Below the pieces are notes generated by a model. The model did no database searches. It was not told the origin of the DNA and saw only the letters and a list, made by a program, of their open reading frames with translations. Made by a program: the position numbers and the translations under genes. Of a stretch of DNA of 47,648 bases, positions 6,955 through 47,150 are shown piece after piece. Location: assembly GCA_032718475.1 (NCBI GenBank), contig JAUCBJ010007670.1:1-47648 (forward strand). Direction: 5' to 3'. The DNA is from Nemertoderma westbladi. Taxonomy: Eukaryota; Animalia; Xenacoelomorpha. Each line of letters starts with the position of its first letter. Positions within the stretch are counted from its first letter, which is position 1.

Positions 6955-8505
6955 TATTATATTATTTTTAGGCTTAACCTTATACCATCTGAAGCCTGTT
7001 ACGAGTTTATGTAACTAGCAGGGATCTATAAATTTTCACCTTGCTGTGCACATTAAATCTTATCATTATATCATATCAGCGTATTATAGTTATTATTATT
7101 GCTTTATCTTGTTAATGAATATACAAGACCAAGGATCACACCAACTTGCTTTCCACCCGGTGAATGCTGACTGTACCCTGTCTGTAATAGATTCGGTTCA
7201 TTTAGTGCGAGTGTGTGCCTTCATATTACTGCAATATTATTCCCCAACTTGTAACTATAATCTATCGATACTATAATGTGTGCAGTACGAGTGAGCCTTG
7301 CGCTTACCATGCACTAGATCCAACATAGCGTCCTACCTGTAATATAAATAAGTCACACGTACATTTACCCGGCGACAACACAACACAACGGAACGGTTAC
7401 ATGTACAGTAAATATTACACTACCCCCTTGATGCAGTTTATAGTGCCAAGGCTATACACTAAAGTAATTGATTGTACCTTCAGACCAGATATACATATTA
7501 GATAATATAAGTATACATAAACGTTCGTGAGTGCTCCTGCTATGCGGCAGGTATCCCAAGGCACTTGATAGTACTCACAAGAATTACAAACAAACTCTCT
7601 TTGGCCAATATGGGGTTAGCCTCCTGTAAAAGTCTTGACAAAATTGACAGAACTCAGGGTTGGTAATCGCAGTTATTAATACCTTCAATGTTCAGCAGGC
7701 CAACCCTCAATAGACAACGGAAGTGGAAATTATCTATATTTATTTATCTTTCAGTTTTCTCTTCATTGTTAATTTCCACTTGGTTCTGTTCATAATAAAG
7801 GGCCAGCCAGAGCCCACAAATGAAGCAGGCAGCCAGCTAAGCCGTATCTTGAAATATAACATTAGATGTGAGAGACATTATATCGGGCAGTCCTATAGGT
7901 TTTATAAAGTATTTTAATTTATATTTATCGTAAAACAATATTATTTTAGTTGTAGTCTAGTTTGCATAATATACTCATTTTGTTATTATTATAAATAGTC
8001 AGAATTGAAATTTTAAACAGTTTTTTTATATATTGATATTATCAACACAGCATTTGAAGGCAGCATTATGATGACGCAGGGAGCCCATATTCCGCCATAT
8101 TCCATTCCCGGCCATTGACCCTGACTAGCCCATGCCCACACAATATACCAATATTGGGCTATGGCAGATACTATGATTGCGCTTTTTTGATATGTAATTG
8201 ATATATCGATTTTTCACACCTTTAGAATGTTATTATTATTAACTGATTTTTTCACGCCTTTATGACTTTTAGTTAACCTACCGCTCGCTAAGGCGAGTAG
8301 AACAAGGAATAGCGACCCAGGGTGATTGGAACCTTTGACGCCGGCGCACATATTGAGGGGGAGACCAGCAGGATGTGGATGTGAAATGTACCAATGAAGA
8401 AGAAACCAAGCCAACCAAGGGTAACATTCTACTACCAAGAGAGGATGAGGCATTCTACGAGAGGAGGAAGCATTCTATGACATCAGGGAGTATTCTACTA
8501 TTGAA

Positions 8506-9450
8506 TGTTAACCCTGTAGAGTAGGCTATCCCAATAGTAATTAAGAACAGAATTACTAATACCTCATCTGATAGGGGCCTTTATTAGGCACCACCAATCA
8601 GGTGAGACGGACGGGATGGCAGAGAATGAATGTAGAGACCACAGATGGAGAATTCAGAAACAACCTTTCTCAATTAGCTACAACTGTGAGGAGAGATTTA
8701 CTGATTACAAATAAGGACGAGACAGGACTGGTGCGGCTTCGCATATAAAATGCGGAAATCTGGTTTAGGGGAGTGAGAGACAAGCAAGGGTGATGATGGG
8801 TGAATTTGGGGGGTAAAGTGTAACATCTGGGAGGAGACGATGAGTTGAGTGACGAAGGGTGTGACATCCGGGAATTGTGGTGAGCGTGTCGAGGAGAATG
8901 AGTCCTATGGGACTAATGCGACGTGTGAGAAGTGAAGAAATTGAGGCCCGGAGGATCGGATCCAACGGTACCCAATCTAAAATTGTGTGAGGAAGGTGCG
9001 ATGGTCTAAAACAGACCATCTTATTTACCGAACTTTCGCCCGTCAGTATTCCCCAACGCGGCGACGCGTAGCAAACGCTACAAAGTCAACCCGGTCGGGA
9101 TCCCTCGCCAACCAGGATCCCGTTACACTCCGTAAAGAATTTGAAGGGATATCGCCAAAGAGTCCCCCTCTCAATTCTTGTCAAACAGGTACCACCACTA
9201 ACTGTGTACGTACGAACAGAAGGTGCTGGAGGCCAACTACCGTCTATTGTCCGGGGGCAATTGTTCTAGTTCCCTTTCTTCCCAAGAATTCGCTGTATTT
9301 TATTAATTTATTTGTATTTATAGCGTTGAATTTCTTTATTCTGGATGATTACCAGCGAAAATAAACTGTAATACCCGGTGCCGTTGACTCTCGTTCATTG
9401 TGTCACTGGCATGGCCTAACGACGCAGAACCGATGGGCCAGGGGGTAACA
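8506..9450 (+). mobile_element. Possible solo LTR
   Basis: TGTTAACCCT...GGGGGTAACA inverted termini, TATAAAA near 8744, AATAAA ~90 bp before the end; no TSD found and left boundary uncertain. Confidence 0.35.
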
Positions 9451-10454
9451 ATATTTTGATTGTTACAATTTTAGTTTGTTAAGTATAATATTTATTTAGG
9501 GATAATAGTTTCTATGGAAACTACAAAACACAATAATTACTGCAAGAGAAGGCAAAACAATTATTATAAGAGTGGAATAACTGAGAAATGTAATCCTTAT
9601 TCCATAAATATATAAATACACAAAATACCGATACCCCTTAAATAAATAGAAATTCGCACAAACAATTACTTCTGGCACAACATACGTACAGTTTCAATAT
9701 AACGCAGGGAACACATCCAATTACCTAAAATCAATTAACTATGTGTTCACACTGCAAGGAGAAGAAACGGAACTTACAGAATAGACAATAATGTCCTGGA
9801 ATATAGTGTTTGACCTTTGACCTTCGGACTAAAGAGTTTAATAACGAGGGTTTGTTGGAATAGAAATGTGACGTTTCAAGGATTACAAATGATTAAATAA
9901 ATCTTAATATATTGATGATAATTAATTAGCTGAGAGATTCGAGTTTCAATAAATACACAATAATTCTGGAACATTATAATTTATACATCATAAGTTGGGC
10001 AACTAATACGTCTAGGTAATAATCTACGTTGAAATTCATTATAAACAAAATGTTCTAGAATAATATTCACTCATATGTACATAACTCAGCTATTTCTCAA
10101 TGGAATTCAGATTATGTTACAATTATTTAGAAACATTTTACAGTCACCTGTCTATAAGGGTTACAAACAACTCTAACCAACAAACCACTAAGATTTCACG
10201 ATATTAAGAGCTAAACACCATATATTCCAGGAGGTGGTTTACTATAAATAGTGATCAATGTTTCATAAACAACAGTTTATATACCCAGTATAAATCCAAG
10301 AAGTTACCAATAGCAATAATTAATTAGATCCGACATTGTTTGTTACAGAGTCGGGTCGTAATACCCACGGTTGCTCAGTTCATTCAAGAGCTGGCTAATA
10401 ATATAATCAGCCAAAAAAATTATAAAATAAAATAGAAAATAAAAGGTAATCCGC

Positions 10455-10916
10455 TTAATCGACCTTAACAACTGAATAAATTTTGCGAATGAACCAAAAG
10501 GATGAGAAAAATCCTATAGTTCCGCAAAAAACGAAGAAAGCTAGAACCATGATTGCGGAATAGGAGAAGTAGAGGAACCCGCTGAGAAACCCTGTCATCG
10601 ACATCTTGGTGATGTAATAGTTGACGGAATATCCCCCGAAGTACAGAGCTGTGGAGCCGGAGGTGAGGAAAGCCCGCCACCACCAGTTATAGTCTTCGGC
10701 GCAGAGATGGAAGTAGCAGAGGAGAACCGAGGCCTGGCCGCAGGTCAGCATGAGGATAAGAGTAACGAGGAAGAGGAATGAGAACATGTAGTAGAATTGT
10801 TGGGACCAGATGCTGCCGAGGATGAAGAATAGTTGGATGAATATACAGCCGAAAGGAAGGATTCCGCCCATCAGTATAGACGGGAGGGGTTTGGTCCAGA
10901 ATGATTGCTCCGGTAC
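10455..10916 (-). CDS. TM9SF2: TM9SF2 coding exon 6 (last)
   Basis: TTTTTTTCCTTCAG|[12 protein letters not shown]...VVKVD*. Confidence 0.95.
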   Translation of the reverse strand, partial: VPEQSFWTKPLPSILMGGILPFGCIFIQLFFILGSIWSQQFYYMFSFLFLVTLILMLTCGQASVLLCYFHLCAEDYNWWWRAFLTSGSTALYFGGYSVNYYITKMSMTGFLSGFLYFSYSAIMVLAFFVFCGTIGFFSSFWFIRKIYSVVKVD

Positions 10917-13900
10917 CTGAAGGAAAAAAAACATGATTCACCTAAATAATAAACCACGACCCGTAATAGTCTTATTTTCTGATGACATGGAACATAATTT
11001 TTCCACTAATCTTTATCATTATCATATTGCTTGAAACTTGGAACACAACTCAACGTTGATAGCCAATTTGAATAGCGAAATCGCAAGCTTCGAATCGCGT
11101 GCCTTTTATATCATTAGAAATCTTGCGTTACAAGGATTCCAAATATGTAAAATATATGAATTTAGTTGAGAAACAGCTGAGATATATAGGCGCTCAAAGA
11201 TTGCAAGAATTATTGTTCGCTGTAGGGTGTATGTGATTTAAATCACAACTACTCACTAATTTAATAACACGTTCTAGAATTTTGTGAACTTCATTAAATT
11301 ATTTTTATAAATTAACTAAATTACACCATAACCCTTAATACAACAACCATTTTTAGGGGGTCGGACCCCCCCCCCCCCTAATTTTTTTCACATTTCAATA
11401 AAATGCTACGAAATTCGGTATGATGATATATTGACACCTTTTCTTACTGGTGGCCTGGCCGGATTTTTCAATTTCTCAGTTATTACCATAAAACAATCCC
11501 TTAAAAACTGTCTATTTAGCAATGTTTAACCACCTAGAACATGTAATCTAAATATCATTCGAAGCGCCTTCGTCTGTAGATTCCGAATCTGAAAACCGTT
11601 TTAAATTTAACCAAAAATGGGTAAAGATATTATAAAACACTAATGTGTAAATTTAGAGACGCAAATCGCTATAATTCTGATGTTTTGTTGTCTTTATTCT
11701 AGAATATTAATTATTATTTAGCTGAGCGTTTAAAACTCTCCATCTCTAGAACAATATATAATTATTTAGCTAATAAAAGGTGCCGTGTACCGATCGGCTG
11801 ACCTACTGGTTACTGACCTACCGCTTACTGCTGGCACATATAGGCCTACTGCTTACATATGAGATATTATTCTTTGAAGTCGCCGCACTGGTATACGACT
11901 AGGCTGTTGAGATGTCTCTGTGTCCTAGGGCGCCCGCTTGTTGCGGCTGCCACGCTAAGAAAGGGCGATGCATTCGTTGCGTGTGCGTCAAACAGGGTCG
12001 CCCTTGCACGTTATGTGCCCCTTCGATAAACAGTCTGTGCGAAAACGCGTTGGGGTCCGTTAATTCGCAGCCAAACATTTCCTTCGACGACAAAAGCGCC
12101 GATCGATGCTCTCCATCAAGGAGTTCGACGCAGCCAATGGTTAACGTGCATTCGGGAGATTGATATATCCTAGACGAGACTCTTCTAGATTCGGACAGGA
12201 CGTTAGATGGGTTTGTTAGCGTTGTCACGAGCTCTTCTCCTTCAACTACAATGAGGGCGGTTTCCCATTCTAACTCTTCCTGGATAACATCTCCCACGAA
12301 GGTAGGGAGAGATCTGTCCCCAGGCGAGGCACAGGCTCGGGCATTAGCAATACTTGACAGGGCCCGTCGTGGTAGTGAAGCAATAGCTTATCAGTCATCT
12401 TCCTTGGGTGAGGGAGTGTCGGAAGCTGGTTCGGTACTTCCAGTTTCTGGCGTCGGTGAGTCGGTCCCTTCGGTATCTGGGATTGGTGAGTCGGTTCCCC
12501 TACTGTCTGGAGTAGGTGAGTCGGTTCCTTCGGTGTCTGGGGCTGGTGAGTCGGTTCCTTCAGTGTCTGGAGTCGGCGAGTCGGTTCCTCGAGTGTCTGG
12601 GGGCGGTGAGTCAGTCAGTTCAGTGTCTAGAGTCGGTGAGTCGGTTTCTCAAGTGTATGGAATCGGTGAGTCGGTTCCTCAAGTGCCTGGGGTTGGTGAG
12701 TCGGTTCCTCAGCTGTCTGGAGTAGGTGAGTCGGTTCCTTCGGTGTACGGGGTCGGTGAGTCAGTTCCTTCACTGTCTGGAGTAGGTGAGTCGGTTCCTT
12801 CGGTGTCCGGAGTTGTGTCTGGAGTAAGTGAGTCGGTTCCTTCAGTATCTGGATTCGGTGAATCTGTCCGTTCAGTGTCTGGAGTCGGTGAGTCGGCTCT
12901 TCAAATGTCTCGTGTCGGTGAGTCGGTTCCTCAGGCTTCCGGGGTCGGTGAGTCATTCCGCTCAGTGTCTGGAGTCGATGAGTCGGTTCCTCCAGTGTCT
13001 GGAGTAGGTGAGTCGGTTCCTTCAGTATCTGGATTCGGTGAATCTGTCCGTTCAGTGTCTGGAGTCGGTGAGTCGGCTCCTCAAATGTCTCGTGTCGGTG
13101 AGTCGGTTTCTCAGGGGTCTCGGGTCGGTCAGTCATTCCGCTCAGTGTCTGGAGTCGATGAGTCGGTTCCTCGAGTTTCTGGAGTCGGTGAGTCAGTTCC
13201 TTCGGTGTTAGGGGTTGGTGAGTCTGTCCGTTTAGTCTCTGGAGTCGGTGAGTCGGCCCCTCAAGTGTCTGGAATCGGCGGGTCGGTTCCTTCATTGTCT
13301 GGAGTCGGTGAGTCGGTCCTCAAGTGTCTAGGGTTGGTGAGTCGGTTCCTGAAGAGTATGGGGTCGGTGAGTTGGTTCCTTATGTGTCTGGAGTCGGTGA
13401 GTCAGTCCCTTCGGTGTCTGGAGTCGGTGGGTCGGCCCCTCGGGTGTCTGGAGTCCGTGGGTCGGTTCCTTCATTCTCTGGAGTCGGTGATTCGGTCCCT
13501 CGAGTGTCTGGGGTTGGTGAGTCGGTTCCTCAAGAGTATGGTGTCGGTGAGTTGGTTCCTTCAGTGTCTGGAGTCGGTGAGTCAGTCCCTTCAGTATCTG
13601 GAGTCGATGAGTCGGCCCCTCAAGTGTCTGGAGTCGGTGGGTCACTTCCCTCGGTGTCTGTTATCAGTGTGTCGGTCCCTTCGGTGTCTGTTGGTATTGG
13701 TGTGTCGGGCACTCAAGGGTCTGGGGTCGGCTCGTCAGGGCCTCCAATGTCTGGAGCTGGCACGTGTCCAGTATGTTTGAGGGTCTTTGGAATAAAAGCC
13801 AATGAGACTCTGCGCACACATGGCCCACCTGCCAACCGGTGCCTGGGATCTAGTGTCCAGCCAGATGCTTCAGCCTCCTTGCAAGGTCCCCCCGTGCCCA

Positions 13901-16900
13901 TATTCCTCTCACAACCTCCACAACATTCATCAATAATAGACCATCCACTACCTTCTGGCTCTCTCACAAGTCACCACCGGTTAGAGCCTCCCTCGACTAA
14001 TGACTCTTACGACAGTGACATTTTCTGCGGCAGTTTACTGGACGAAACCGTTATTGCACAGATCATCACTTCCAGTACGACTCTGATTGCCCCATCATCC
14101 CCGCCGGAGGTCCCCACCCCGGCACTCCCAGACTTCCACTCATGCACGCTCGCGTTTAACTGGAACGGTATTCCCGGTGAGGTTTACCTGGGTCGCCTCA
14201 AACTAGCATACGACGAGATAGCTCATTGGAACTCCAGTTTGTTCGAGATTCCTCGATCTCAGGCGGGTAAAGAGTTTATATCGGCGATGACTAAACTGCT
14301 AAATGCGTTTGGCGAGGGTTCCAGTATGGAGGGCTTGGCGATGTATGCAGTCATGGTAATGCCCAAATTAATGCTGCAAGCTGCGACGAGACCGGTTGAA
14401 CCTGGTGGCAGTGTGAGTAAGACTCTGCAGAGGAGGTTGGAACTATGGCGGGAAGGAAACATTGAGGAACTCTTACTTGAAGGGCGCGCTCTGGTTGCTC
14501 GCAGGAAGGGCCTCGGGAATAAAATACACCCGGACCATTCCCGGAAGCGGTTTATTCACGCCATGAACAAAGGCCGAGTTGGCGCCGCGGTAGATATCGT
14601 TGAAGATGGCACTGGTTCCAGAGTCCTTGGGATCGATGAGGAAATCGGTGGAAAAACGGTAAAGGATATTCTAATATATTAATTTAATTGCGCCATGGTA
14701 CTGGCATTATGGTAGATAAAAACGGTATTTAATTAAATCAAATAAATAAGTAAAAACGTTAAAGAGTTAAAAGAGTTCGGTAAATTACGTATCATTAGAG
14801 GCCCAGGAGGTTAGCGTTCGCGAGTTTTCCTTGCATGTTAGTAGGTGGTATAGTGGGGCCGGGTCTCCGCACAGCAGACATACACAGCTCTCCAGGTTGG
14901 GGGCATGAAATTTATCTGTCGCACAGATCTTATGATGAAATCCGTGGACCGATACCCGTGTTGTTACGTGCCGACCGGATTGGTTAGGTTCTGTCCATTT
15001 TCGGTTCTGGAATGCCGGGCTGCTCCAGAACTCGACCGGAATTTCCGACTTCTTGGTTACGATATCTGCTCTATATTCCATCAAGGCAGCCGTATCGTTT
15101 AGGTGCAGATTACAAATGATGTCCTCGACTAGAGTGTTCTCCCCGCACAAAGCTATCACAAGGCGATTCAATGTGCTTTTGTGTACGCCCAAGGTTTTCT
15201 TTAGGTAATTAGTCTTTACTCTGTCAATTGTATGGAGGTTCGCGGTAGTCAGATGAGGCCAGATTAGATGTAGGTTGTACGTTATTATGGGTCGTATCTT
15301 TATGTTGAATACTTTTATAGCGGTCGCCAGAGAAAGATAACGCGGGTTTGTAATGTTGTGGATAGACATTATAGATTTACAACAGATATTTGTAATGTGT
15401 GTCGAAAAGGATAACGTTGGCTGGAAAGTAACACCCAAATATGTGTAAGCGTTTCGGATTATAACAGGTTGCTGGTTGTAATAAAACTCATCTGCTTTAC
15501 AAAGTTTACCTCCCCGTCGAAACTTGATCACGGCAGTTTTCTTTAAATTGACTGTGAGACCATTCAGAGCCGCCCACTCTGATAGAGCATTGAGGCCGGC
15601 TTGTAGACTTTCCCTGGTGTGTGAGTAAAACAGTAGATCGTCGGCAAACAGTAATATTACTAAAATGTCAGCCCGCTTGAGCGCATCTACCAGATCCGCA
15701 ATGTATAGTATAAATAAATAAGGACTGAGTGTATCACCCTGTAATAGGCCGATCAGCTGGCTTATTGGTTTGGTTTTACGCAACCCATCGAAGACTTGTA
15801 TGTAATTGGTCGATAGTAGTATTTCTATAAATCGCAGCATTCTTCCTTTGAGCCCAAATAAACGGCGCAGTTTCTCGATGAGTTTAGGTCTTGGAACGGA
15901 ATCGAATGCTTTCTTGAAATCCACAAAGCATGCGTACAGGGGTCTCCTTGGTTGGTCGAGGTTACAGTTTATATCATGGAGCAATTGTTCAATGGGTTGT
16001 GCCGTAGAAGGATATTCTAATAGAAAAACACCCTGGACCGGGTCCAATAGATCCCTCTTTAATCGAAACCTCCTGGCCAGATTCTGTAGATTTTCATCCC
16101 GCGGTCTTTGATAGCATCAATAGTGACGCCGTGCTCTCCTGTGTACTCCACTCCCACGGTTCCCCAGGTCCCTCCGGCCTCGATGCAGACGCCTGGCGAC
16201 GCGCCATGACAGCCTTCGGTAATGTATCCTGCGACCTTAGGAAGGCCGTGGCAGGGGTAGCGAGGCGTTTGGCGACGGAACACATCGACTCCGCGAGTTT
16301 ACTTCCCTACAACGCGAGTCGGTTAGTGCCACTCGATAAACAACCAGGGGTTCGACCAATTGGTGTGGGCGAGGTACTACGGAGGATTATTGGGAAGGTG
16401 GTCGGGAGGATAGCGAAGTTCGACCTTGGTGAGCTGGCGGGTAACACCCAACTGTGTGCGGGGCAAGTCGGTGGTATAGAACACGCTGTGCATGCCCTAC
16501 GGGAACACTTTGAACAGCCTGAATGCGACGGCCTCCTTTTGATTGACGCAAAGAATGCGTTCAACGCCTTGAGTCGCCGTTTAACCCTTCTGAACTGCCA
16601 GGTACTTTGTCCAGTTCTCTTCACCATCCTAACCAATTCCTATCGGGAACCGTCGCCGCTTTTCGTAGGAAATGACGTTATCTGGTCGCAAGAGGGGTCA
16701 ACCCAAGGGGATTCTCTGGCGATGCAGATGTTTGCAGTCGGCACATTGCCAATGGTTAAGAAACTAGAACCTATTCTTATGAATTGCCACACGTATGTGG
16801 CTTCCCCCATCCAACCTTTGGGTTCCCCCCACCAACCTTCGGGTACCCCGCTCAAACCGGCGGGTTTCCCCATTCAACCGGCGGTTTCCCCCCTCCAACC

Positions 16901-19645
16901 TCCGGATTCCCCCCTCCAACCGGTGGGCTCCCCCCGCCAACCGGTGGGCTCCCCCCTCCAACCGGTGGGCCCCCACCTCCAACCAGTGGGTTCCCCCCTC
17001 CAACCTCCGGATTCCCCCCTCCAACCGGTGGGCTCCCCCCGCCAACCGGTGGGCTCCCCCCGCCAACCGGTGGGCTCCCCCCTCCAACCGGTGGGCCCCC
17101 CCCTCCAACCAGTGGGTTCCCCCCTCCAACATTCGGGCTCCCCCCTCAAACCTTCGGGTTCCCCCCTCCAACCTTCGGATTCCCCCCTCAAACCTTCGGG
17201 CTTCCCCCTCGAATGGGCGGTTTCCCCCCTTCAACCATCGGGTTCCCCCCTCCAACCTTTGGGTTCCCCCCTCCAAACTTCGGGCTCCCCCCTCAAACCT
17301 TTGGGTTCCCTCATCAAACCTACGGGTCCCCCGCTCCAACCTACGGGTCCCCCGCTCCAACCGGCGGGTTCCACCCTCCAACCTTCGGGTCCCCACCCCC
17401 AACCGGTGGTTTCACCCCTCCAACCATCGGGTTCCCCCCTCCAATCCTCGGGTCCCCCCCTCCAACCATCAGGTCCCCTCCTTCAACTATTGGGTTCCCC
17501 CCTCCAACATTTGGGTTCCCCCCTCCAACTATCGGGTTCCCCCTTCCAATCTCCGGTTCCCCCTTCCAACCTTTGGGTTCCCCCCTCCAACCTTCGGGTT
17601 CCCCCCTCCAACAGGCGGGTTCCCCCTTCCAACCGGTGGGTTCCCCCCTCCAACCGGAGGGTTCCCCCCTCCAACCGGTGGTTTCCCCCCTCCAACTGGC
17701 GGGTTCCCCCCTCCAACCAGGGGGTTCCCCCCTCCAATCTTCGGGTTCCCCCCTCCAACCTTCGGGTTCCCCCCTCCAACCGGCGGGTCCCCCCCAACAA
17801 CCATTGGGTTCCCCCCTCCCAACGGCGGGATCCAAATTCCAACAGGCAGGTTCCCCCCTCCAACAGGCGGGTTGCCCCCTCCAACAGGCAGGTTCCCCCC
17901 TACAACCACAACCGGCGGTTCCCCCCCTACAACCGGCGGTCTCCTCCACCCAACCAGGGGTTTACCCAGACCGAGAGGCGGTTTCATCGGATCCGATGAC
18001 CTTTCCGGGTATCCACAAGTGGTATGCGGATGATGGCAGCGCTGCTGGTAACCTCGGAATGCTACGTGACTATTGGGAGGAAGCGGCTACCATCGGGCCT
18101 GGCTATGGATATTACCCCACAAAGGCATTTCTTATTGTGAAGAACTCAAAGCGCGAAGAGGCCAACGCGATTTTCTCTGGCCTCCCTGTTGAAGTGGTCG
18201 ATGGTCATCGAGTCCTGGGGTCCGTAATAGGGTCCACATCCTACTGTGCTGGGTATCTGGAGAAGCGAGTTGATGTCATCTGTCGCCAACTAAAACACCT
18301 CAACGATTTCGCAGTGACTGCTCCCCACCCCGCGTACGGATGCCTGGTCCGTGGCTTACAGCCAAAGGTAAACTTCTTGGCTCGCACCACACCCGGGTTA
18401 GTCGGTCACTTGGATCGAGTTGAGGAAACACTCTCCAGCACAGTCATCCCGACACTCACTGGCAGATACCCACCCGGCCTTTCGGAACGACAGCTGCTGG
18501 CACTCCCTGTGAGGGAGGGGGGGGCTAGCTATAAATCAACCTCAGGATGAGGTGGAAAGCTATGAGAAGTCGTTGCGACTCTGCGAGCCCCTACGGTGTT
18601 CGGACCCAGCCGCTCGTACAACACAGCAGACCATCCTGCGTGAGATCCGCAAGGAGCAGGATGAGGCTGTGAAGACTCGATGTGCGGCGGTTGATGCTCA
18701 ACTGTCCGGAGACGCCCTCTACCATCGGACACTGGCGAAGGAGCGTGGAGCGTCAGCATGGCTCTCGGCCCTACCCATTTCCAGATACAACTTTTCCCTA
18801 CACAAATCCGCTTTCCGGGATGCGTTGTGTCTGCGATTTGGGTGGGAGCCCCCGAGGCTGCCCGCCAACTGCTCCTGCGGTGCTGTATTCACCATCTCCC
18901 ACTCCCTTCACTGCCCTATGGGAGCCTACCCGATCCTGCGGCACAACGAGGTCCGCGATTTCCTCGCCGAGCTCCTCAGCGAGGTCGCACACGACGTTGA
19001 GGTGGAACCCCATCTCCAGCCGATCGAGGGCGAGTCTTTCCGCCTGAGATCTGCTACGGTAGACCCGGAGGCCCGTCTGGACGTTGCGGCGAGTGGGCTG
19101 TGGGGTGGGCGCTTCGAGCGGGTGTATATCGACGTCAAGGTATTCAACCCTCTGTGCTCCTCCAATCCTCGCTCCATGGATGCTGCTTACAGCAAACATG
19201 AGCGAGAGAAACGGAGGAAGTACGAGGAGAGAATCAATGACATCGAGCACGCCGGCTTCTCGCCTTTTGTAATTGCTACAACTGGTGGGGCCAGCCGCTC
19301 AGCCCACGCGCTCCTCACACGCATTGCGCTCTTACTGTCGGCGAAACGGGATGCTCCCTACTCGCAGACTCTCTCCCTCATCAGGACTCGGTTGAGTTTC
19401 GCCCTCCTCCGTTCCTCCATCATGTGCCTCCGGGGCGCACGGAAGCCGAAGGCTAGGCTGGCAACGAGACAGACGATGCGGGAGACCGGCGTGAGCGCGG
19501 CTGTAGCCGAGGCTGGGATTGCATTAAATAGTTTCAACAATAATTATTAATTACCTACAATTTGTTGACATTAATTAATTCATTATGCTGCTTGTTTGTT
19601 AATGTTTATTTTATTTGTAATTGAAATAAAGAAATTTAGTATAAT

Positions 19646-19683
<38 letters not shown>

Positions 19684-22600
19684 CCATCTTGTTTTTTAAT
19701 TCCATAATTAATATTCTAGAATTGAGTAAAAAAAACATTAGAATTATAGCGATTTACGTCACAAAAATTTACACCTTAGTATTTTTATAATATCTCCGGA
19801 AGTTCTTGGTGAAATTTACAACGGGTTTCAGATTCGGAATCTGCAGATGAAGGCGGTTCTAATGATATCTAGATTTCATTCCAAAGACGAAAAATAAAGC
19901 CGACAGAGGTGGTTAAATATTGCGAAATAGACGATTTTTAACGACTTGTTGTATCGAAATAGCTCATAAATTAAAAAATCCGGCCAGGCCACCAGTAAGA
20001 AAAGGTATCGATCTATCATCACACCGAATTTTGTAGCATTTTGTTGAAATTTGAAAAAAATAGGGGGGGGGGCTCCGACCCCATAAAAATGGTTGTTGTA
20101 TTAAGGGTTATGGTGTATATATAGAATGGCCTCCAGAGAACGATATTTCTTGCAATCTTTGAACGCCTATATCTCAGCTGTTTCTCAACGAAATTCAGAT
20201 ATCGTTATATTTGGAATCCTTGTAACGCAAGCTTTCTAATTATAAAAAAATACCACTATTGTGGATACTGGCGGCAATAGGAAGGGTGCAGGAGTGCAAG
20301 GAATTTCGCACCCACTACACTTTTTTTTAAACGCTTAAAAAAATTTAAAGCAAAAATTGAGAGTTATGACTTCATGCCAACCACGTTTATAATAACATCA
20401 CGAATATAATAAATTTACACCACTTTTACATTTGCCTGGCGAGGTATCTGATTGGTCGTTCGTAAATTTACCTGGCGAGGTATCTGATTGGTCGTTAACT
20501 TAACTGGCGAAGTATCTGATTGGTCGTTAATTTACCTGGCGAGCTATCTGATTGGTCGTAAACTCACCTGGCAAGGTATCTGATTGGTCGTTAACTTACC
20601 TGGCGAGGTATGTGATTGGTCGTTAACTTACCTGACGAGGTATCTGATTGGTCGTTAACTTACCTGGCGAGGTATCTGATTGGTCGTTAACTTACCTGAC
20701 GAGGTATCTGATTGGTCGTTAATTTACCTGGCGAGGTATCTGATTGGTCGTAAACTTACCTGGCAAGGTATCTGATTGGTCGTTAACTTACCTGGCGAGG
20801 TATCTGATTGGTCGTTAACTTACCTGGCGAAGTATCTGATTGGTCGTTAACTTACCTGACGAGGTATCTGATTGGTCGTTAATTTACCTGGCGAGGTATC
20901 TGATTGGTCGTTAACTTACCTGACGAGGTATCTGATTGGTCGTTAATTTACCTGGCGAGGTATCTGATTGGTCGTAAACTTACCTGACGAGGTATCTGAT
21001 TGGTCGTTAACTTACCTGACGAGGTATCTGATTGGTCGTTAATTTACCTGGCGAGGTATCTGATTGGTCGTAAACTTACCTGGCGAGGAATCTGATTGGT
21101 CGTTAACTTACCTGACGAGGTATCTGATTGGTCGTTAATTTACCTGGCGAGGTATCTGATTGGTCGTAAACTTACCTGGCAAGGTATCTGATTGGTCGTT
21201 AACTTAACTGGCGAGGTATCTGATTGGTCGTTAATTTACCTGGCGAGGTATCTGATTGGTCGTAAACTTACCTGGCAAGGCATCTGATTGGTCTTTATCG
21301 TTAACTTACCTGGCGAGGTATCTGATTGGTCGTTAACTTACCTGGCGAAGTATCTGATTGGTCGTTAACTTACCTGACGAGGTATCTGATTGGTCGTTAA
21401 TTTACCTGGCGAGGTATCTGATTGGTCGTTAACTTACCTGACGAGGTATCTGATTGGTCGTTAATTTACCTGGCGAGGTATCTGATTGGTCGTAAACTTA
21501 CCTGGCAAGGTATCTGATTGGTCGTTAACTTAACTGGCGAGGTATCTGATTGGTCGTTAATTTACCTGGCGAGCTATCTGATTGGTCGTAAACTTACCTG
21601 GCAAGGCATCTGATTGGTCGTTAACTTACCTGGCGAGGTATCTGATTGGTCGTTAACTTACCTGGCGAAGTATCTGATTGGTCGTTAACTTACCTGACGA
21701 GGTATCTGATTGGTCGTTAATTTACCTGGCGAGGTATCTGATTGGTCGTAAACTTACCTGGCAAGGTATCTGATTGGTCGTTAACTTACCTGGCGAGGTA
21801 TCTGATTGGTCGTTAACTTACCTGGCGAAGTATCTGATTGGTCGTTAACTTACCTGACGAGGTATCTGATTGGTCGTTAATTTACCTGGCGAGGTATCTG
21901 ATTGGTCGTTAACTTACCTGACGAGGTATCTGATTGGTCGTTAATTTACCTGGCGAGGTATCTGATTGGTCGTAAACTTACCTGACGAGGTATCTGATTG
22001 GTCGTTAACTTACCTGACGAGGTATCTGATTGGTCGTTAATTTACCTGGCGAGGTATCTGATTGGTCGTAAACTTACCTGGCGAGGAATCTGATTGGTCG
22101 TTAACTTACCTGACGAGGTATCTGATTGGTCGTTAATTTACCTGGCGAGGTATCTGATTGGTCGTAAACTTACCTGGCAAGGTATCTGATTGGTCGTTAA
22201 CTTAACTGGCGAGGTATCTGATTGGTCGTTAATTTACCTGGCGAGGTATCTGATTGGTCGTAAACTTACCTGGCAAGGCATCTGATTGGTCTTTATCGTT
22301 AACTTACCTGGCGAGGTATCTGATTGGTCGTTAACTTACCTGGCGAAGTATCTGATTGGTCGTTAATTTACCTGACGAGGTATCTGATTGGTCGTTAATT
22401 TACCTGGCGAGGTATCTGATTGGTCGTTAACTTACCTGACGAGGTATCTGATTGGTCGTTAATTTACCTGGCGAGGTATCTGATTGGTCGTAAACTTACC
22501 TGGCAAGGTATCTGATTGGTCGTTAACTTAACTGGCGAGGTATCTGATTGGTCGTTAATTTACCTGGCGAGCTATCTGATTGGTCGTAAACTTACCTGGC

Positions 22601-25600
22601 AAGGCATCTGATTGGTCGTTAACTTACCTGGCGAGGTATCTGATTGGTCGTTAACTTACCTGGCGAAGTATCTGATTGGTCGTTAACTTACCTGACGAGG
22701 TATCTGATTGGTCGTTAATTTACCTGGCGAGGTATCTGATTGGTCGTAAACTTACCTGGCAAGGTATCTGATTGGTCGTTAACTTACCTGGCGAGGTATC
22801 TGATTGGTCGTTAACTTACCTGGCGAAGTATCTGATTGGTCGTTAACTTACCTGACGAGGTATCTGATTGGTCGTTAATTTACCTGGCGAGGTATCTGAT
22901 TGGTCGTTAACTTACCTGACGAGGTATCTGATTGGTCGTTAATTTACCTGGCGAGGTATCTGATTGGTCGTAAACTTACCTGGCAAGGTATCTGATTGGT
23001 CGTTAACTTACCTGGCGAGGTATGTGATTGGTCGTTCGTTCACTTACGTGGCGAGGTATCTGATTGGTCGTTAACTTACCTGACGAGGTATCTGATTGGT
23101 CGTTAACTTACCTGACGAGGTATCTGATTGGTCGTTAATTTACCTGGCGAGGTATCTGATTGGTCGTAAACTTACCTGGCAAGGTATCTGATTGGTCGTT
23201 AACTTACCTGACGAGGTATCTGATTGGTCGTTAACTTACCTGACGAGGTATCTGATTGGTCGTTAACTTACCTGACGAGGTATCTGATTGGTCGTTAACT
23301 TACATGCGTATGCGAGGTATCTGATTGGTCGTTAACTTACCTGACGAGGTATCTGATTGGTCGTTAACTTACATGCGTATGCGAGGTATCTGATGGGTCG
23401 TTAACTTACGTGCGAGATATCTGATTGGTCGTTAACTTACCTGACGAGGTATCTGATTGGTCGTTAACTTACTTGCGAGGTATCTGATTGGTCGTTAACT
23501 TACGTGCGATGTATCTGATTGGTCGTTAACTTACCTGGCGAGGTATCTGATTGGTCGTTAACTTACGTGCGAGGTATCTGATTGGTCGTTAACTTACGTG
23601 CGAGGTATCTGATTGGTCGTTAACTTACCTGACGAGGTATCTGATTGGTCGTTAACGTACCTGGCGAGGTATCTGATTGGTCGTTAACTTACCTGGCGAA
23701 GTATCTGTTTGGTCGTTAACTTACCTGGCGAAGTATCTGATTGGTCGTTAATTTACCTGGCGAGGTATCTGATTGGTCGTTAATTTACCTGGCGAGGTAT
23801 CTGATTGGTCCGGACTGGATTCTCTATGAGTCGCCGTTTGTAGCCGATATAAGCCCCGAAGAAGGTTAGGGGAACCGAAACGAGGAACCACATAGCCAGG
23901 AGAGCGCAAAGAGTACCGAAAGGAAGGGCACCCGAAGAACCTGCGCGTAGACGATTAGATATAGACGATTAGGAGAACCAGGAAGTTGTAAAATATCAGA
24001 GGTAAAACAATCCACACCACTCAAATGCTATGGAACCTTAAAAAAGTCATTGAAATTGAGTGGATTGTTCTATCTCTGTGACAAGATCCCGAAGGTAAAA
24101 CTACCCACTCAGATAAAGAGGAAATGTTCTGTACATTTTCGTTTTGCTATGCCTCTCGGGAAAATATAGTGTTTAAAAGGAATCAGACTTTTCGGGATTC
24201 CCGGGACCGGGATTATCACTCTCGGGATCCCGATTTTCGGGAACGGGATTGCAATTTTGGATTAAATTCCTCAAAGTATGTGGCGGGTTTTGGGTAACAC
24301 TCATTTTATCTTAAAGTTCTGAAATATTAGTAAGATAAAGTTCTATTAAAATTATTCTGCAATTGATTACTGGATGGTTTACTGACATGAAAATTCGATA
24401 TAAGCAAAACATTTCCGTGCTGCTGGAACTGCTTACAGATTTTCAACAAATTTACTTAAATATATATTCTTCGAGATCCCGGTCCAAAAAAAAGTCGGGA
24501 TCGGGGTCGTTATAGGATTTTTTGACGCGATCCCTGTTTTTGGGGATCCAGTTTAAACACTAAATATAAATTAGCTTACTAACCTATAACCCAGAGCACG
24601 ATATTTACGATAAAGAGGATAGCAAAAGCGACTCCGGGGCAGAGGAAGGCTGTTAGTAAGACATTACTCTTCCAACGGATACCCCCAAAGGATTTGTAGA
24701 TGCGGGCGCTTACGTAGCCGGCTGGGGTGCCTAGCAACACGTAAACAACAAGGACGCAGGTTAGTAGAGCGCCCCTTTGCGCCGGACTGAGGAACCCAAG
24801 ACAAGCGCAGATTAGTGTGACCATCACCATGGTGATTATCTGGAATATTTGAGTCAAATAAATATAATTATTATGTAAAACCAGGCCTACCCAACCTACC
24901 TGCACTCCTCTACCTGCACTCCTCTACCACACAGACCAACCTACCTGCACTCCTCTACCACACAGACCAACCTACCTGCACTCCTCTACCACACAGACCA
25001 ACCTACCTGCACTCCTCTACCACACTGACCAACCTACCTACACTCCTCTACCACACTGACCAACCTACCTGCACTCCTCTACCACACAGACCAACCTACC
25101 TACACTCCTCTACCACACTGACCAACCTACCTGCACTCCTCTACCACACAGACCAACCTACCTACACTCCTCTACCACACTGACCAACCTACCTGCACTC
25201 CTCTACCACACAGACCAACCTACCTGCACTCCTCTACCACACAGACCAACCTACCTGCACTCCTCTACCACACTGACCAACCTACCTGCACTCCTCTACC
25301 ACACAGACCAACCTACCTACACTCCTCTACCACACTGACCAACCTACCTGCACTCCTCTACCACACAGACCAACCTACCTGCACTCCTCTACCACACAGA
25401 CCAACCTATCTGCACTCCTCTACCACACAGACCAGCTACCCGCACTCCTCTACCACACTGACCAACCTACCTGCACTCCTCTACCACACAGACCAACCTA
25501 CCTGCACTCCTCTACCACACTGACCAACCTACCTGCACTCCTCTACCACACTGACCAACCTACCTGCACTCTTCTACCACACAGACCAACCTACCTGCAC

Positions 25601-28600
25601 TCCACTCCCCAGCAGTACTGACAGTAACATTCCTCTTCTAGGTGGCCGGAACACATCTCCGTGTACCAACTTCCAACCGTACTCCTCTATGGCGTCGTCT
25701 CCAGTCTCCTGATTGTACTTGGCGATATCCCGATGGAGAGTTCTCAACAAAATCATGGAGAGCATACCGGCGAGGAAAAGAACGATGACAAGGGAGTTGA
25801 TTATAGAGAACCATTGGATGTTGGAGTGGGGCATCGATTCGAGAATATAATCCCAGCGGGAAGCCCAAGTTATCTTAAAACCAATCAATTACTAATATTA
25901 AATACAAATAATTATAAAAATGGGAAATGTTTAAGTTTAATACATCATTTATTATTTTAAGAAATATTTTTACCCATACATTTTTTTACATTTATCCCCC
26001 AACATGAGAGCATTTTGTACATTACATGTGCACCATCATCCTTAATATTCGATTATAAAACTCTCCATTTCATTTCTTCATTACGAGTAATTTAATTCAT
26101 ATTTTAGAATTGAGTAAAGAATATTGTTGTAGCTAATTAATACGTAATTCAGTGACCCCCCCCCCCTCCCCCTCCCCCAATTTTTCTACATATCTTGGAT
26201 GAGATTGCGTGAAATTTATAGATATTCGTTGATCTTGATGCCATTGGAAAGATAACGTTGCAACGATTCAAAATATGTAAAAATATTTCAAATTGGTTGG
26301 GAAATAGCTGAGATATGGGCGTTCGAAAGTTGCTTGTATTTGCTACCGCGCTGCAGGCCATTTATTATATTTAATATATACACCATGTTCTATAACAGTT
26401 TGTTTATGTTTGAAAATCCATGTATTCGTATTGCATGTACTAGTGTTATTATTAGAGGCATTGCACTGTTGCCCAGCTACTTATGAGATAAACAAACTAT
26501 TCTAGAACAAGGTGTATTTATTAAATAGAATAAATGGCCTGCAGCGCGGTAGCAAATACAAGGAACCTCCGAACGCCCATATCTCAGCTATTTCCCAACC
26601 AATTTGAAATATTTTTACATATTTTGAATCGTTGTAACGTTATCTTTCCAATGGCATCAACGAATATCTATAAAACTGAGATATAACTGCAGTACGACTG
26701 ACGCAATATCGATGGAGACACGTTTTTAAACGCTTTTAGCTATAGATTGAGGGCGAAAATAAAAATTCTGGCTCGCCCAGTCAGTGGTCGGGAGGTGAAA
26801 CTAACTCTGTTTAAAATTTCATGCAATCTCATCACGATTTGTAGAAAAATTTGGGAGGGGGGGGGGGGGGGGGAGGTACCTGAATAACGACACTATATTC
26901 CAGGACATGGTGTACTATACTACTTATGTGAGCGTGAGGTAAAGCATATTAAATACCGTTCGCCTTTATGAAATTGTTGAATCACAACATAATTGTTTAA
27001 TGTTTATGCATTGCTATGCTATTGTGAAATATTATGCAGAATAGCATTAATATATAGCTGTAACAATATATACCGACGGTATAATAAAGCATTAATTATT
27101 ACGCAATTAATTTCATAAGCTTAGGTCGTAAAAAATAATTATTTATTACATGGGAAAAAAGTATAACTTTTTTTTCTTAAGGGTCGAGAGAATATTGAAA
27201 AAAAATGTAAACTATAGTATTTTACTATATTGCTTCCATAGTTAGCTGCGATTCCAATTATTGCACTCTTCAACTCCCGATGCTTCCTTACTCAATGTTA
27301 AATGATTTAGTGTTCACGAATATTTATTACGTAACTAGAGAGCCGCTTAACTACATAAACAAATATTGGATATTGAGTTCCGTTTCGGAGTTCGCCTTAC
27401 AGGCACTAAAGTTGCAATAACATTTGAGTGTGTGAATGGATTTTGCTCAAATTATTTACAAACCTTTTGTACTGCGATGGTCTTCAACATATGTAATAAC
27501 ATTTAAGAAATTCCACCAAAAATATTTTATTTTACTTTATTTCGCCGGGAAGAAAGTAAAATCAATACAATCCTATGGGTTAGGCCTACTTTTTTTCCCT
27601 AGGGAAAAATGTGAAACGTTTTCTCCCGAATTTGGTGTAAATTCGGGAGAAAAAGTAATAATTTAAGAATAAAAGTTTATTATAACTTTTTTTTACATCT
27701 GAAGATTTCTTACCGGCACCTAGCTGGTGCACGGCACCAACAGCACATAACGATAGGTGCACTAACGGCACCTAGCTGGTGCACGGGCACCAACAGCACA
27801 TAACGATAGGTGCCCTAACGGCACCTAGCTGGTGCACGGGCACCAACAGCACATAACGATAGGTGCCCTAACGGCACCTAGCAGGTGCACGGGCACCAAC
27901 AGCACATAACGATAGGTGCCCTAACGGCACCTAGCTGGTGCACGGGCACCAACAGCACATAACGATAGGTGCCCTAACGGCACCTAGCTGGTGCACGGGC
28001 ACCAACAGCACATAAAGATAGGTGCACTAACGGCACCTAGCTGGTGCACGGGCACCAACAGCACATAACGATGGGTGCACTAACGGCACCTAGCTGGTGC
28101 ACGGGCACCAACAGCACATAACGATAGGTGCACTAACGGCACCTAGCTGGTGCACGGGCACCAACAGCACATAACGATAGGTGCCCTAACGGCACCTAGC
28201 TGGTGCACGGGCACCAACAGCACATAACGATAGGTGCACTAACGGCACCTAGCTGGTGCACGGGCACCAACAGCACATAACGATAGGTGCACTAACGGCA
28301 CCTAAAGATATGTGCACCAACGGCACCCAACGTAACGTGCACCAACGGCACCTAACGATATGTGCATCAGCAACACCTAACGATATGTGCGCCTCTATTA
28401 TATATATCTAATTCGCAAAAGGTGCAGCTGCTTGCGCATGCGCAATAATAGTCTCCCATGCCGCCATTCAGTTGCACGGGGTAGGTGTAAAACGCGGATC
28501 CGGATTCCAAAATTATCAATTAAGGGAAAGGAGCAGGTTACAGTGGCACGTTATTTTAACCAAAACAATAAACTAAAGTCAATAGAACAGGTTATAGTTT

Positions 28601-31600: not shown

Positions 31601-33873
31601 GTGCAAAACTCAATACACGATGGCAGAAAATCTTAATTTCGGACTTCTGAAACTATTGAGTGTAATGGAGTTATCTGATATATTTTTATCGGATCTATTA
31701 AGCGTCAAAGTCAAAGATAAATTATATTAATATATAATAATTATATTATGTATTATTTACTTTCATTACATTATTATTATTTTATAAATCGCAAGAAATT
31801 TCTGGATTTACATTTAATTTAATTTTACATTCAATTCTGAAATTTGCATTAATTTTTTTTTAAACTTTATAAATATTAAGAAAAACTCTCACCAAGGAGG
31901 AAAGGCGAAAAAATATAATCTCTACCAAGTCCAGACGTTGGCTAATAAACTCATAAGTTTTCATCAAGTCAACTAATTCTCCTGAAAAAACGTCCACCAA
32001 GAGGGAATCGACTTGCGAGAACTCAAATATGAGTTCTCGCCAAGTCAGATACAACCATTGGAAAAACTCCCACCAAGTGGAATTAGCCCTCCCAAAACTC
32101 ATATATTCACCAGTTCAAGGGTTTACAGTGATAAGAGTGATGGTAGAGCATCTATAAGCGCTAGATATTTCCTTATAAAGGTGTTTCCTATTGAGCTCTA
32201 GAGTAGCATGAAGGCAATTATGTAGCGGGCTGTTGGGTTACTGGTTGTTTGTCATGATCGTTCTAAGGGATGCTTTAAACGGTTTAGTTGCAAAAGAATT
32301 TAATTTCATTAAGTTGTAGATGATCGACTTACTACAGCGTAGGTGACAAGATGCAACTGTTTCCCGATGTTATCTAGGGGCCCATAAATAAATAAATAAT
32401 AAAAAAATAGATTAAAAGTAAATAAATAAATTGATACCTCGAAATTCTTTTCAAACTTGACGCTGTAGGTGTAGCTGACGGTGACGTCATTGGTTGAGGT
32501 AGCGGGAAGGAACAACGGCGGTTGTTGCTCATCGCAATCGCCGGAAGTAGAATGACGCACGGATCGCGGCCAAACCCTGACGGAGACGAGTCGACCGGCC
32601 CCTTCGATCTCCTTGTCGATGGGATGGTAAGCCACGGTGATGTCGACGTGGTTGAACACGTAGTAGCTGTCGGGGGTTGAGTAACGGCCGTCGATAACGC
32701 AGGCCCCCTGTCGCGCGCCGCCAGCGGTTACGTAGCAACCTATAGGGAAGCCCGGGTGGCAGAACTTCTGCGGCGCGGTGGACCCCGCGACTGGGTCAAC
32801 CGCATAGCACCAGGTCACCGGCATGTTGTCTACGATCCAGTGGTGGTGGTAGTTAAGGGCGATGCCCTCCTAGTAATGCAATAATAATATAGGGAATAAA
32901 GCGTGTAAGGAAACAAAGTTAACAATGAATAAAGCCTGGAAGGAAATAAAGTTAACAATGAATAAATCGTTGAAGGAAATAAAGTTAACAAAGTGAATAA
33001 AGCGTGGAAGAAAATATAGTTACCGGTAACAATATATAAAGAGTGGAAGGAAATAAACCGGAAATAAACCTCACAACGAATAAAGCGTGGAAGGAAATAA
33101 AGTTATACATAACATAACAAATTTATATCGACAATTACAAAGGTTTTTGAACAAGATTTCCGGCATATCTGCCTGCATACTGTGTATATCATCAACGACT
33201 CAGCATTCCCCCACAGTCCACAGTAGGCCCGCCTATCTTGGGATCTTATAAAAAAACGCAAAAAAATATAAATCCAGTCCGGTAGGACCAACTTGTAAAT
33301 AGGTAACGGTAAATGTCCTACAAAATTAACTTGAACGGTTCCGGGTAATAAATATCTCAAATACTAGGCCTATATACTTGAACAGAGAGGTCAAGTTACC
33401 GGTACCAATCCATACGTCTAAATAATAAACTCAATATGTTACAGACTGATCGACTAAAACTGACAAACCTTGAGGAATGTTAGGAGATCCTCGCTCGGTT
33501 TATCGCCAGACTTGTAGGATTTGTCGCAGAGCTTGGCGCACTGCTTCTCTGCTTTGAAATTGATTTCGTAAGGGGAGGGGCCGATTCGCTCCCCAAACAC
33601 AACCTGGCCGAGATTCTCGTGGGGGCCGACGGCTTCCGCCTTGGCCTGGCAGAAATCGAAGGCCGAGTATTCGTGGAGAATCAGGGATTCCTGTGAGTCT
33701 AGACGGTTTACCAACAGTTCGATGGGGGCTTTACAGTTGGGATGGGCGGCGGTTTCGGCAGACTCTTTAGGGCAGTAGGCAACAGAGGCGATACCCGGAA
33801 GGTAAAAACCCGAGCAGCTTGATACAATAAAAGAAACAAAAAGTAGAAACTTAACAACATCCATATTGGCCAT
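10455..33873 (-). CDS. TM9SF2: Transmembrane 9 superfamily member 2 (nonaspanin/EMP70), 6 coding exons, 661 aa: join(33873-33469,32869-32438,25873-25595,24839-24584,23940-23789,10916-10455)
   Basis: Signal peptide + [66 protein letters not shown]-terminal KIYSVVKVD; all introns GT-AG with consistent phases; exons sum to 1986 nt. Confidence 0.95.
12430..13700 (+). repeat. 30-bp coding minisatellite in CRE ORF ([10 protein letters not shown], ~40 copies)
   Basis: Unit GGAGTCGGTGAGTCGGTTCCTTCAGTGTCT. Confidence 0.95.
14677..16007 (-). mobile_element. Young 5'-truncated LINE (RTE-X/L2-like RT with C-terminal Cys/His motif) inserted in the CRE ORF
   Basis: Perfect 15-bp TSD AAGGATATTCTAATA (14662-14676, 16008-16022); uninterrupted ORF with [46 protein letters not shown]. 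Confidence 0.92.
16797..17960 (+). repeat. 21-bp C-rich minisatellite inside the CRE RT domain (GSPLQPx, ~55 copies)
   Basis: Unit ~GGTTCCCCCCTCCAACCGGTG; all three plus frames open. Confidence 0.95.
20433..23810 (-). repeat. 32-bp satellite (~105 copies) made of the TM9SF2 exon 5/intron 5 junction
   Basis: Gene-strand unit GACCAATCAGATACCTCGCCAG|GTAAGTTAAC; the first copy overlaps the last 22 nt of exon 5. Confidence 0.97.
23789..23940 (-). CDS. TM9SF2: TM9SF2 coding exon 5 (not in ORF track)
   Basis: CAG|GT TCT TCG...: (G)[50 protein letters not shown]|GTAAAT. Confidence 0.92.
24167..24562. mobile_element. MITE with TAGTGTTTAAA TIRs and CGGGAT subterminal repeats (hAT- or Academ-like)
   Basis: TAGTGTTTAAA...TTTAAACACTA; only a 4-bp AATA flanking duplication is visible. 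Confidence 0.6.
24584..24839 (-). CDS. TM9SF2: TM9SF2 coding exon 4
   Basis: CAG|IITMVMV...LWVI-G|GTTAGT (phase 1). Confidence 0.92.
24891..25603 (-). repeat. 31-bp minisatellite (~23 copies) made of the TM9SF2 exon 3/intron 3 junction
   Basis: Gene-strand unit GGAGTGCAG|GTAGGTTGGTCTGTGTGGTAGA; the first copy overlaps the last 9 nt of exon 3. Confidence 0.97.
25595..25873 (-). CDS. TM9SF2: TM9SF2 coding exon 3
   Basis: AAG|ITWASRWDY...GSGVQ|GTAGGT. Confidence 0.92.
26143..26889. mobile_element. Foldback (long inverted repeat) with central TA|CACC...GGTG|TA mini-element at 26381-26514
   Basis: ~26215-26407 is a near reverse complement of ~26488-26674; poly-C/poly-G outer arms; shares the AGCTGAGATAT..GGCG motif with the arms at 11104/20247. 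Confidence 0.8.
27714..28390. repeat. 53-bp tandem repeat (~11 copies plus degenerate tail), preceded by three hairpins
   Basis: Unit CGGCACCTAGCTGGTGCACGGGCACCAACAGCACATAACGATAGGTGCACTAA. Confidence 0.95.
28479..28696. mobile_element. Mutator-like MITE
   Basis: TIRs GGGT..GTAAAACGCGGATCCGGAT; 9-bp TSD AGTTGCACG/AGATGCACG (1 mismatch). Confidence 0.75.
29243..29782. mobile_element. Tc1/mariner (Tc2/pogo-like) MITE
   Basis: TIR CCGTATTTACTCGAATAAGAGCC / GGCTCTTATTCGAGTAAATACGG; flanks CA and TA. Confidence 0.8.
29904..31482. mobile_element. Non-autonomous hAT element
   Basis: TIR TAGGGATGTCCCGGAAT (Ac-like TAGGGATG start); perfect 8-bp TSD GTTAAGAT; CCGGAA subterminal repeats. Confidence 0.9.
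32438..32869 (-). CDS. TM9SF2: TM9SF2 coding exon 2
   Basis: TAG|[17 protein letters not shown]...KNFE|GTATCA. Confidence 0.9.
32895..33104 (-). repeat. Degenerate ~33-bp tandem repeat (~6 copies) next to the exon 2 acceptor
   Basis: Gene-strand unit ~GTTAACTTTATTTCCTTCCACGCTTTATTCATT. Confidence 0.8.
33469..33873 (-). CDS. TM9SF2: TM9SF2 coding exon 1
   Basis: MANMDV...TFLK then donor AAG|GTTTGT. Confidence 0.9.
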
Positions 33874-39047: not shown

Positions 39048-39132
39048 ACACGTTCGTGGGGACTTCGCGCAGCACGTAGTCGGCAAGCCTTGGCATACGG
39101 TTCATATAGAGCAAATGGGGCATGTCTAGTTT
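39048..39132 (-). mobile_element. HINE/DINE-1-like element copy 1, first part (split by the BEL insertion)
   Basis: Reverse complement of 44558-44642; continues at 47151. Confidence 0.85.
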
Positions 39133-39776: not shown

Positions 39777-39788
39777 TAGCCACCCCTC

Positions 39789-44086: not shown

Positions 44087-44119
<33 letters not shown>

Positions 44120-46500: not shown

Positions 46501-46501
46501 A

Positions 46502-47145: not shown

Positions 47146-47150
47146 AGTTT

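Follow-up and report, generated by a model that had tools for sequence, protein, structure and literature searches.

INTRODUCTION

Minisatellites that extend across an exon-intron border have been described in lancelets, under the name of 'mirages', and in human genes. The mirages are tandem repeats over such borders that leave splicing undisturbed, vary in length and are of unclear origin (PMC3087553); the genes that carry them include Adh3, troponin C, the globins BflGb6 and BflGb9, and PGBD5 (PMC3087553, PMC3902484). Here we analyze a related arrangement in a TM9SF2 gene on the minus strand of contig JAUCBJ010007670.1, the whole 47,648 nucleotides (nt) of which we call the window. One tandem array (array 1) covers the donor splice site of exon 5, and a second (array 2) covers that of exon 3. 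The lineage differs from that of the lancelets and is likely to be acoelomorph; a literature search at the level of listings turned up no account of comparable arrays from acoels.

The human junction minisatellites comprise the 37-bp variable number tandem repeat of F7 intron 7, that of CBS IVS13, and those of 6-16, LMNB2 and PDGF (PMC1557585). As in array 1, the first unit of the F7 repeat spans the donor and is followed by pseudo-donors that are equal to it or better (PMC1557585). The upstream-most donor is the one used in F7, LMNB2 and PDGF, and in the F7 experiments splicing was confined to the first functional site from the upstream end, even when its competitors had a consensus value (CV) of 91 (PMC1557585). 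A different role for junction duplication appears in the model of Rogers, in which an intron is gained by tandem duplication of an AG/GT sequence (PMC3087553; here and below the slash marks the splice border).

RESULTS AND DISCUSSION

The exon 5 junction is repeated 105 times

The minus strand of the window encodes a six-exon TM9SF2 gene in which all five introns have GT-AG ends and the 661 aa of the product are free of internal stops. The model is 60-64% identical to each of the eight aligned homologues, and the alignment is ungapped at the array-bearing junctions, including PRQ/VPEQ at exon 5/6. All six exons match the Pfam family EMP70, and the profile positions are continuous over both junctions (271/272 at exon 3/4 and 407/408 at exon 5/6).

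The exon 5 border is fixed by the homologues, by Pfam positions 407/408 and by a spliced contig discussed below. Against this border, unit 1 of array 1 joins the terminal 22 nt of exon 5 (23810-23789) to the 10 nt with which intron 5 begins. Tandem Repeats Finder (TRF) places the array at 20435-23810 with a period of 32, 104.7 copies and 91% matches, and splitting gives 105 units. An earlier reading of the locus from sequence alone had described just this, that is about 105 copies of the TM9SF2 exon 5 end and donor over some 3.4 kb, with a unit of 22 coding and 10 intron nt; TRF and unit splitting agree on the first point, and the homologues, Pfam and the spliced contig on the second. That reading also held that the array arose in place, and had considered that the unit might instead belong to a dispersed satellite unrelated to TM9SF2. 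All 105 matches to the unit in the window lie inside the array, and the eight listed loose ends of contigs from sequencing runs lead into the array, its distal flank or neighbouring exons, none of them into foreign sequence, which favours origin in place and speaks against the dispersed satellite. The confinement holds for the window and the loose ends examined; rare distant copies elsewhere in the genome are possible.

We consider it probable that array 1 is a junction-spanning minisatellite of the mirage kind, which expanded by itself in place and is tolerated as the first donor wins. By this account a 32-bp segment over the exon 5 donor would have been duplicated in place by chance, the first exon end being left intact, and slippage and unequal crossing-over would then likely have brought it to 105 copies. 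Around the donor each unit has a near-palindrome, TACCT..AGGTA, that pairs neighbouring units, and this may have favoured the first slippage. The upstream-most donor would win by its position on emerging from the polymerase, by analogy with the oriented scanning of F7, a model in which copies further down can function yet are outcompeted through their position, and the second takes over once the first is mutated. Leaked products would mostly be cleared by nonsense-mediated decay (NMD), and the array would have no selected function.

The donors of the array are unequal. Donor 1, the one required for the protein, is CAG/GTAAAT, and GTAAAT occurs in 27 of the 105 units; the perfect CAG/GTAAGT occurs in 62, the nearest lying 64 nt downstream of donor 1 in unit 3, and the GT is kept in 99. 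Every donor beyond the first reads V-N-stop and gives a 510-aa product. The sequence-only reading was therefore right about the imperfect authentic donor, the perfect copies beginning 64 nt away, and the immediate stop that follows all the alternatives. For 96 of the 98 alternative GT donors the resulting stop falls over 55 nt upstream of the last junction, the exceptions being donors 2 and 3 (23 and 55 nt). NMD acts on a stop that is 50-55 nt or more before the last junction, so that a backstop by NMD is likely.

The comparison with known repeats is close. Like array 1, the lancelet mirages are copies of exon-intron borders in an invertebrate, with units of 10-160 bp and internal turnover from which the edges are excluded; the unit range of 10-72 bp in Adh3 implies several arrays in a single gene, as in TM9SF2 (PMC3087553). 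Five of six features of the mirage and F7 type were found in the TM9SF2 arrays: head-to-tail units of minisatellite size, a first unit lying over the border, origin and confinement at the locus, mRNA made from the upstream-most donor, and internal turnover with divergent edges. The sixth is variation in copy number between alleles, on which the contig depths given below provide a weak hint. The scale is different: 105 copies in array 1 against 3-6 in lancelet BflGb6, 5-9 in F7, with its weak donor, and 25 pseudo-sites in 6-16. The 62 perfect donors of array 1 belong to the class that competed in the F7 mutants, and while all its alternatives are closed by a stop, some of the F7 pseudo-sites are not.

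The Rogers model resembles array 1 in that the duplication covers CAG/GT, and both ends of intron 5 read CAG/GTA. Intron gain by this route, which calls for a unit made of exon sequence alone with the intron placed between its copies, was rejected for array 1. Between the 10 intron nt of the unit and the beginning of exon 6 the match is confined to GTA, and thus intron 5 is older than the array; no new exon or intron was seen in array 1. Intron position in relatives was uninformative, as the 68 of 79 loci that are continuous at the motif are mostly transcripts; the other 11 lack the motif.

Variation within the array

The 93 units of 32 bp have a mean of 2.0 differences. Two adjacent blocks of 31 units differ at a single base and represent a recent higher-order duplication. 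Odd or rare units lie near both edges of the array (positions 4-25 and 101-105), and the combination of an internal 31-unit duplication with divergent edges is the turnover pattern of the mirages.

Some 70 of the 105 units have G at position +5 of the intron. The edge units 1, 2, 104 and 105 have A at this position, so that the G looks like the derived state. Two of the frequent variants, +5 A>G and +8 A>T, raise the match to U1; +1 G>T, in five units, destroys the donor, and three frequent exon-side variants leave it untouched. Since the remaining frequent variants either leave U1 pairing unchanged or abolish the GT, and since array 2 shows no shift toward consensus, drift inside the array suffices to account for this pattern.

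Array 1 in independent sequencing runs

A run search yielded five runs containing the exon 6 region, under one organism label and from three studies. X1 is a DNA run that is possibly the source of the assembly, and X2 and X4 derive from one independent DNA sample of another study. Array 1 contigs over exon 5 and units 1-2 number 17 in X1, 91 in X2 and 28 in X4, where the sequence-only reading had allowed that the reads might lack the array. Over units 1-2 the contig depths of these three runs add up to about 190-310 times the depth of unique exon, rare unit variants are common to their contigs and the assembly, and in X2 and X4 a contig extends from the array into the distal flank of the assembly at 20400.

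The near-identity of the two 998-bp blocks, which differ at 1 base, and the fact that no single run contig spans the array could be taken to mean that array 1 is much shorter in the animal, or that the 31-unit block was mis-joined in assembly. We regard such an artefact as extremely unlikely, given the depth over units 1-2. Moreover, four X1 contigs have 9.5, 21, 14 and 29 copies by depth, a rough measure, where the 105-unit assembly leads us to expect about 7, 20, 10 and 23, and a 74-unit version 5, 12, 7 and 15; three of the four were paired by best candidate, and a fifth contig, at 12 copies, has no clear candidate. The X1 depths, from a run that may itself underlie the assembly, fit 105 units better than a 74-unit version lacking the duplicated block. 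Contig depth is not copy number. A 50-nt contig has 13.5 copies in X4 and 8.2 in X2 where the assembly has 22.5, and another of 73 nt has 5.3 in X4 and 14 in X1; that two contigs are shallower in the X2/X4 sample is a weak hint of a different allele. The simulated unitig mass was 24,166 against 6,890-10,656 observed, the run contigs being simplified and partial, and these values give no calibration of length.

A spliced contig leaves both arrays at the first donor

X3, a run from a further study, contains an unbroken spliced contig of 3238 nt at a depth of 1074.6, in which intron 4 is skipped exactly. Mapping of the loose-end letters gives the order exon 3 from donor 1, exon 4, exon 5 from donor 1, exon 6, so that in this one spliced contig of one run the first donor is used at both arrays. 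The joints mapped are those from exon 3 to exon 6. The length matches the whole gene model with a 5' untranslated region (UTR) of about 139 nt and a 3' end near 9342, to about which point the 3' UTR would accordingly reach. The intron part of units 1-2 and the end of array 2 are without cover in X3, and this is not counted as evidence. This is the sole X3 contig on the exon 5 stretch, and the product of donor 1 is the dominant form. The concern that the gene copy might be unexpressed is thereby removed, and because the transcript recovered was spliced from donor 1, the array is probably tolerated. The sequence-only reading had held that this organism must enforce the first donor or remove errors by NMD. 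The sole spliced contig, being the donor 1 form, bears out the need for one or the other; that this should be peculiar to the organism does not stand beside the human and lancelet precedents.

The same contig bears on the suggestion, made in that reading, that the array is an expression dial, in which the perfect donors from unit 3 onward take a share of splicing, NMD destroys the products, and the output of TM9SF2 is set by copy number or by the sequence of the first few units. There are 62 such donors, the first at +64 nt, with a stop in all the alternatives, and decayed forms would be concealed in steady-state contigs. In addition, perfect sites compete in F7 minigenes, and CBS and 6-16 use two pseudo-sites (PMC1557585). 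Yet the stops from donors 2 and 3, at 23 and 55 nt, should partly escape NMD, and the only X3 contig at this border is the donor 1 form; and if only the nearest sites matter, as in F7, then 100 distal copies add nothing. The dial is left without support, and we judge it quite unlikely.

A second suggestion of the same reading was that the array is a landing pad for the U1 small nuclear ribonucleoprotein (snRNP), which would prevent premature cleavage and polyadenylation within a 12.9-kb intron filled with transposons. All 63 AGGTRAG words of intron 5 do lie within array 1, the nearest AATAAA is about 0.8 kb beyond it, and the majority variant is the better match to U1. The distribution of AATAAA is a poor fit, however. 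Protection by U1 has a range of roughly 1 kb, and two of the three sense AATAAA of intron 5 (19615, 14556 and 11698) are outside it, at 5.9 and 8.7 kb from the array. Intron 2 has 13 AATAAA with no AGGTRAG and no array, and array 2 occupies a 755-nt intron that has no AATAAA and shows no drift to consensus. This suggestion too is unsupported, and we think it very improbable.

Lastly, the units might serve as ratchet points for recursive splicing, cutting intron 5 stepwise and leaving the mRNA unchanged. In each of them a branch-like TTAAC lies about 22 nt upstream of CAG/GT, and the pyrimidine tracts are weak at some authentic TM9SF2 acceptors. But the units have no pyrimidine tract, each has another AG 13 nt earlier, and the CAG is nothing more than a copy of the end of the exon. 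All the sites fall in the first quarter of the intron, and array 2 has no branch-like word. We give recursive splicing hardly any credence.

A second donor array and other repeats at splice borders

Array 2 is another donor-spanning array, whose unit consists of 8-9 nt of the exon 3 end and 22 nt of intron 3 and has no sequence kinship with that of array 1. It occupies about 700 of the 755 nt of intron 3 and is G-rich on the sense strand. The downstream donors lead to a stop after six codons. Array 2 keeps the weaker GTAGGT donor, with no shift toward consensus. We count this unrelated array, in a short intron and with its weaker donor kept, in favour of the minisatellite interpretation.

In a simple placement model, the chance that a second array would span a donor given array 1 is 3.5% (there being four other large arrays in the gene), or 4.7% with transposon open reading frames (ORFs) set aside; that of two in five is 0.12%. 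Duplications are found at four of the 10 TM9SF2 splice borders, namely the two donor arrays, a degenerate 33-bp repeat before the exon 2 acceptor and a doubled 11-mer before that of exon 5. Such doubled 11-mers with a branch word occur in two of 301 control intron windows. The two smaller duplications were noticed only in retrospect, and a single gene makes a small sample. The positions of all these features are given in Table 1.

Table 1. The TM9SF2 gene and its associated tandem repeats, in window coordinates.
Feature	Position	Strand	Basis
Exon 1, coding part	33469..33873	-	homologue alignment, Pfam
Degenerate 33-bp repeat, pyrimidine-rich and branch-like, with 24 nt between its end and the exon 2 acceptor	32894..33105	-	TRF
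Exon 2	32438..32869	-	homologue alignment, Pfam
Exon 3; authentic donor CAG/GTAGGT	25595..25873	-	homologue alignment; donor used in spliced contig
Array 2, 24 units, mostly 31 bp, donor-spanning	24895..25603	-	TRF (24910-25603, period 31), unit splitting
Exon 4	24584..24839	-	homologue alignment; spliced-contig joint skipping the 643-nt intron 4
Doubled 11-mer with branch-like CTAAT, directly before the exon 5 acceptor	23941-23975	-	comparison with control intron windows
Exon 5; authentic donor CAG/GTAAAT after 23789	23789..23940	-	Pfam, homologues, spliced contig
Array 1, 105 units of 32 bp (22 nt exon 5 end and 10 nt intron 5 each)	20435..23810	-	TRF, unit splitting
Two adjacent 31-unit (998-bp) blocks in array 1, 1 base different	20974..22969	-	block comparison
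Intron 5, 12,872 nt, with array 1 followed by retroelement ORFs of both strands	10917..23788	-	Pfam, ORFs, gene model
Exon 6 (last), coding part	10455..10916	-	Pfam, homologues, spliced contig

One copy of the 33-bp repeat before exon 2 ends in TTCCTTCCAG, a possible cryptic acceptor. A 53-bp minisatellite of 11 copies is present in intron 2 (27714-28304), away from any splice site.

How firmly does the first donor win?

Several observations weigh against the interpretation of array 1 as a minisatellite silenced by position. A perfect site placed downstream was the sole successful competitor in F7 minigenes; it captured 70-90% of splicing, although from a weak authentic donor (CV 74) (PMC1557585). 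By analogy with this result, position alone may not explain the silence of array 1. The stronger donor is, to judge from the sequence of the units, the derived majority within the array. The occurrence of a second donor array is above chance, so that the origin of these arrays may be non-random. The evidence for donor choice comes from contigs of one run, X3, which is recorded as 'DNA?' and was taken as RNA because it is spliced. Assemblers discard rare forms; the contig is consequently no measure of leakage, and we estimate that even some tens of percent would be compatible with it.

The G at +5 may be of less weight in TM9SF2, since donor 1 is one base off consensus and the authentic donors vary on their intron sides, while all five have AG before the GT. 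RNA structure was examined as a basis for choice of the first donor and was rejected: in 90-nt windows donor 1 ranks 51 of 105 in predicted openness, and a 212-nt fold has a z of -1.6. With the upstream context only, donor 1 is the more open (0.66 against 0.47, 0.43 and 0.23), which is a weak hint, and donor 1 of array 2 ranks first of 24.

A more radical alternative would be that the splice signals of this lineage seed tandem duplication, and that its spliceosome passes over the 62 perfect donors under a strict rule of position, even where the rule of mammalian F7 fails. The repeats at four TM9SF2 borders are a hint of such seeding from one gene, and we consider the alternative unlikely. Returning to the minisatellite interpretation, array 1 is then probably a harmless repeat of a known kind, whose range it extends to a likely acoelomorph. 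Its interest lies in the size of the array, the presence of two arrays in one gene, and the perfect donors downstream; it is the largest case among the published examples compared. It provides a natural reporter of 5' splice-site choice, in which a strong, imperfect first donor is set against 62 perfect ones and errors are marked by a stop. Should an excess of duplications at splice borders prove general across the genome, it would bear on the origin of mirages, which is called unclear in PMC3087553.

Affinity of the gene and other elements in the window

Among the 120 matches listed for exon 6, the highest identity, 79%, is to the acoel Symsagittifera roscoffensis; for exon 2 the best identity is 53%, and it lacks any close relative. 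A quick protein tree of 28 of 228 proteins places this TM9SF2 as sister to the protein of that acoel, with a Shimodaira-Hasegawa-like approximate likelihood ratio test (SH-aLRT) value of 99. Both are long branches, and long-branch attraction may contribute to the pairing.

Intron 5 contains long retroelement-like ORFs at 12164-19680 on the plus strand, antisense to TM9SF2, with a 31-nt A tail at 19651. Two tandem repeats within them are themselves coding (30 bp x 41 and 21 bp x 53), and three pieces searched gave no Pfam match; from its motifs the element may be CRE-like. Nested within it is a reverse-transcriptase ORF at 14785-16116 on the minus strand, and thus in the sense of TM9SF2 (PF00078, E 5e-24), with AATAAA at 14556. 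Inverted copies of a dispersed repeat, at 11322-11714 and 19704-20117 and 80% identical over 417 nt, flank the retroelement block of this intron.

In intron 4, positions 24150-24500 are a high-copy dispersed element, probably a miniature inverted-repeat transposable element, whose summed contig depth is thousands of times that of unique sequence in all four runs. Upstream of TM9SF2 is a long terminal repeat retrotransposon on the minus strand (39048-47648), presumably BEL/Pao-like from its ORF layout. Its 644-bp terminal repeats (39133-39776 and 46502-47145) are identical, and it is a recent insertion.

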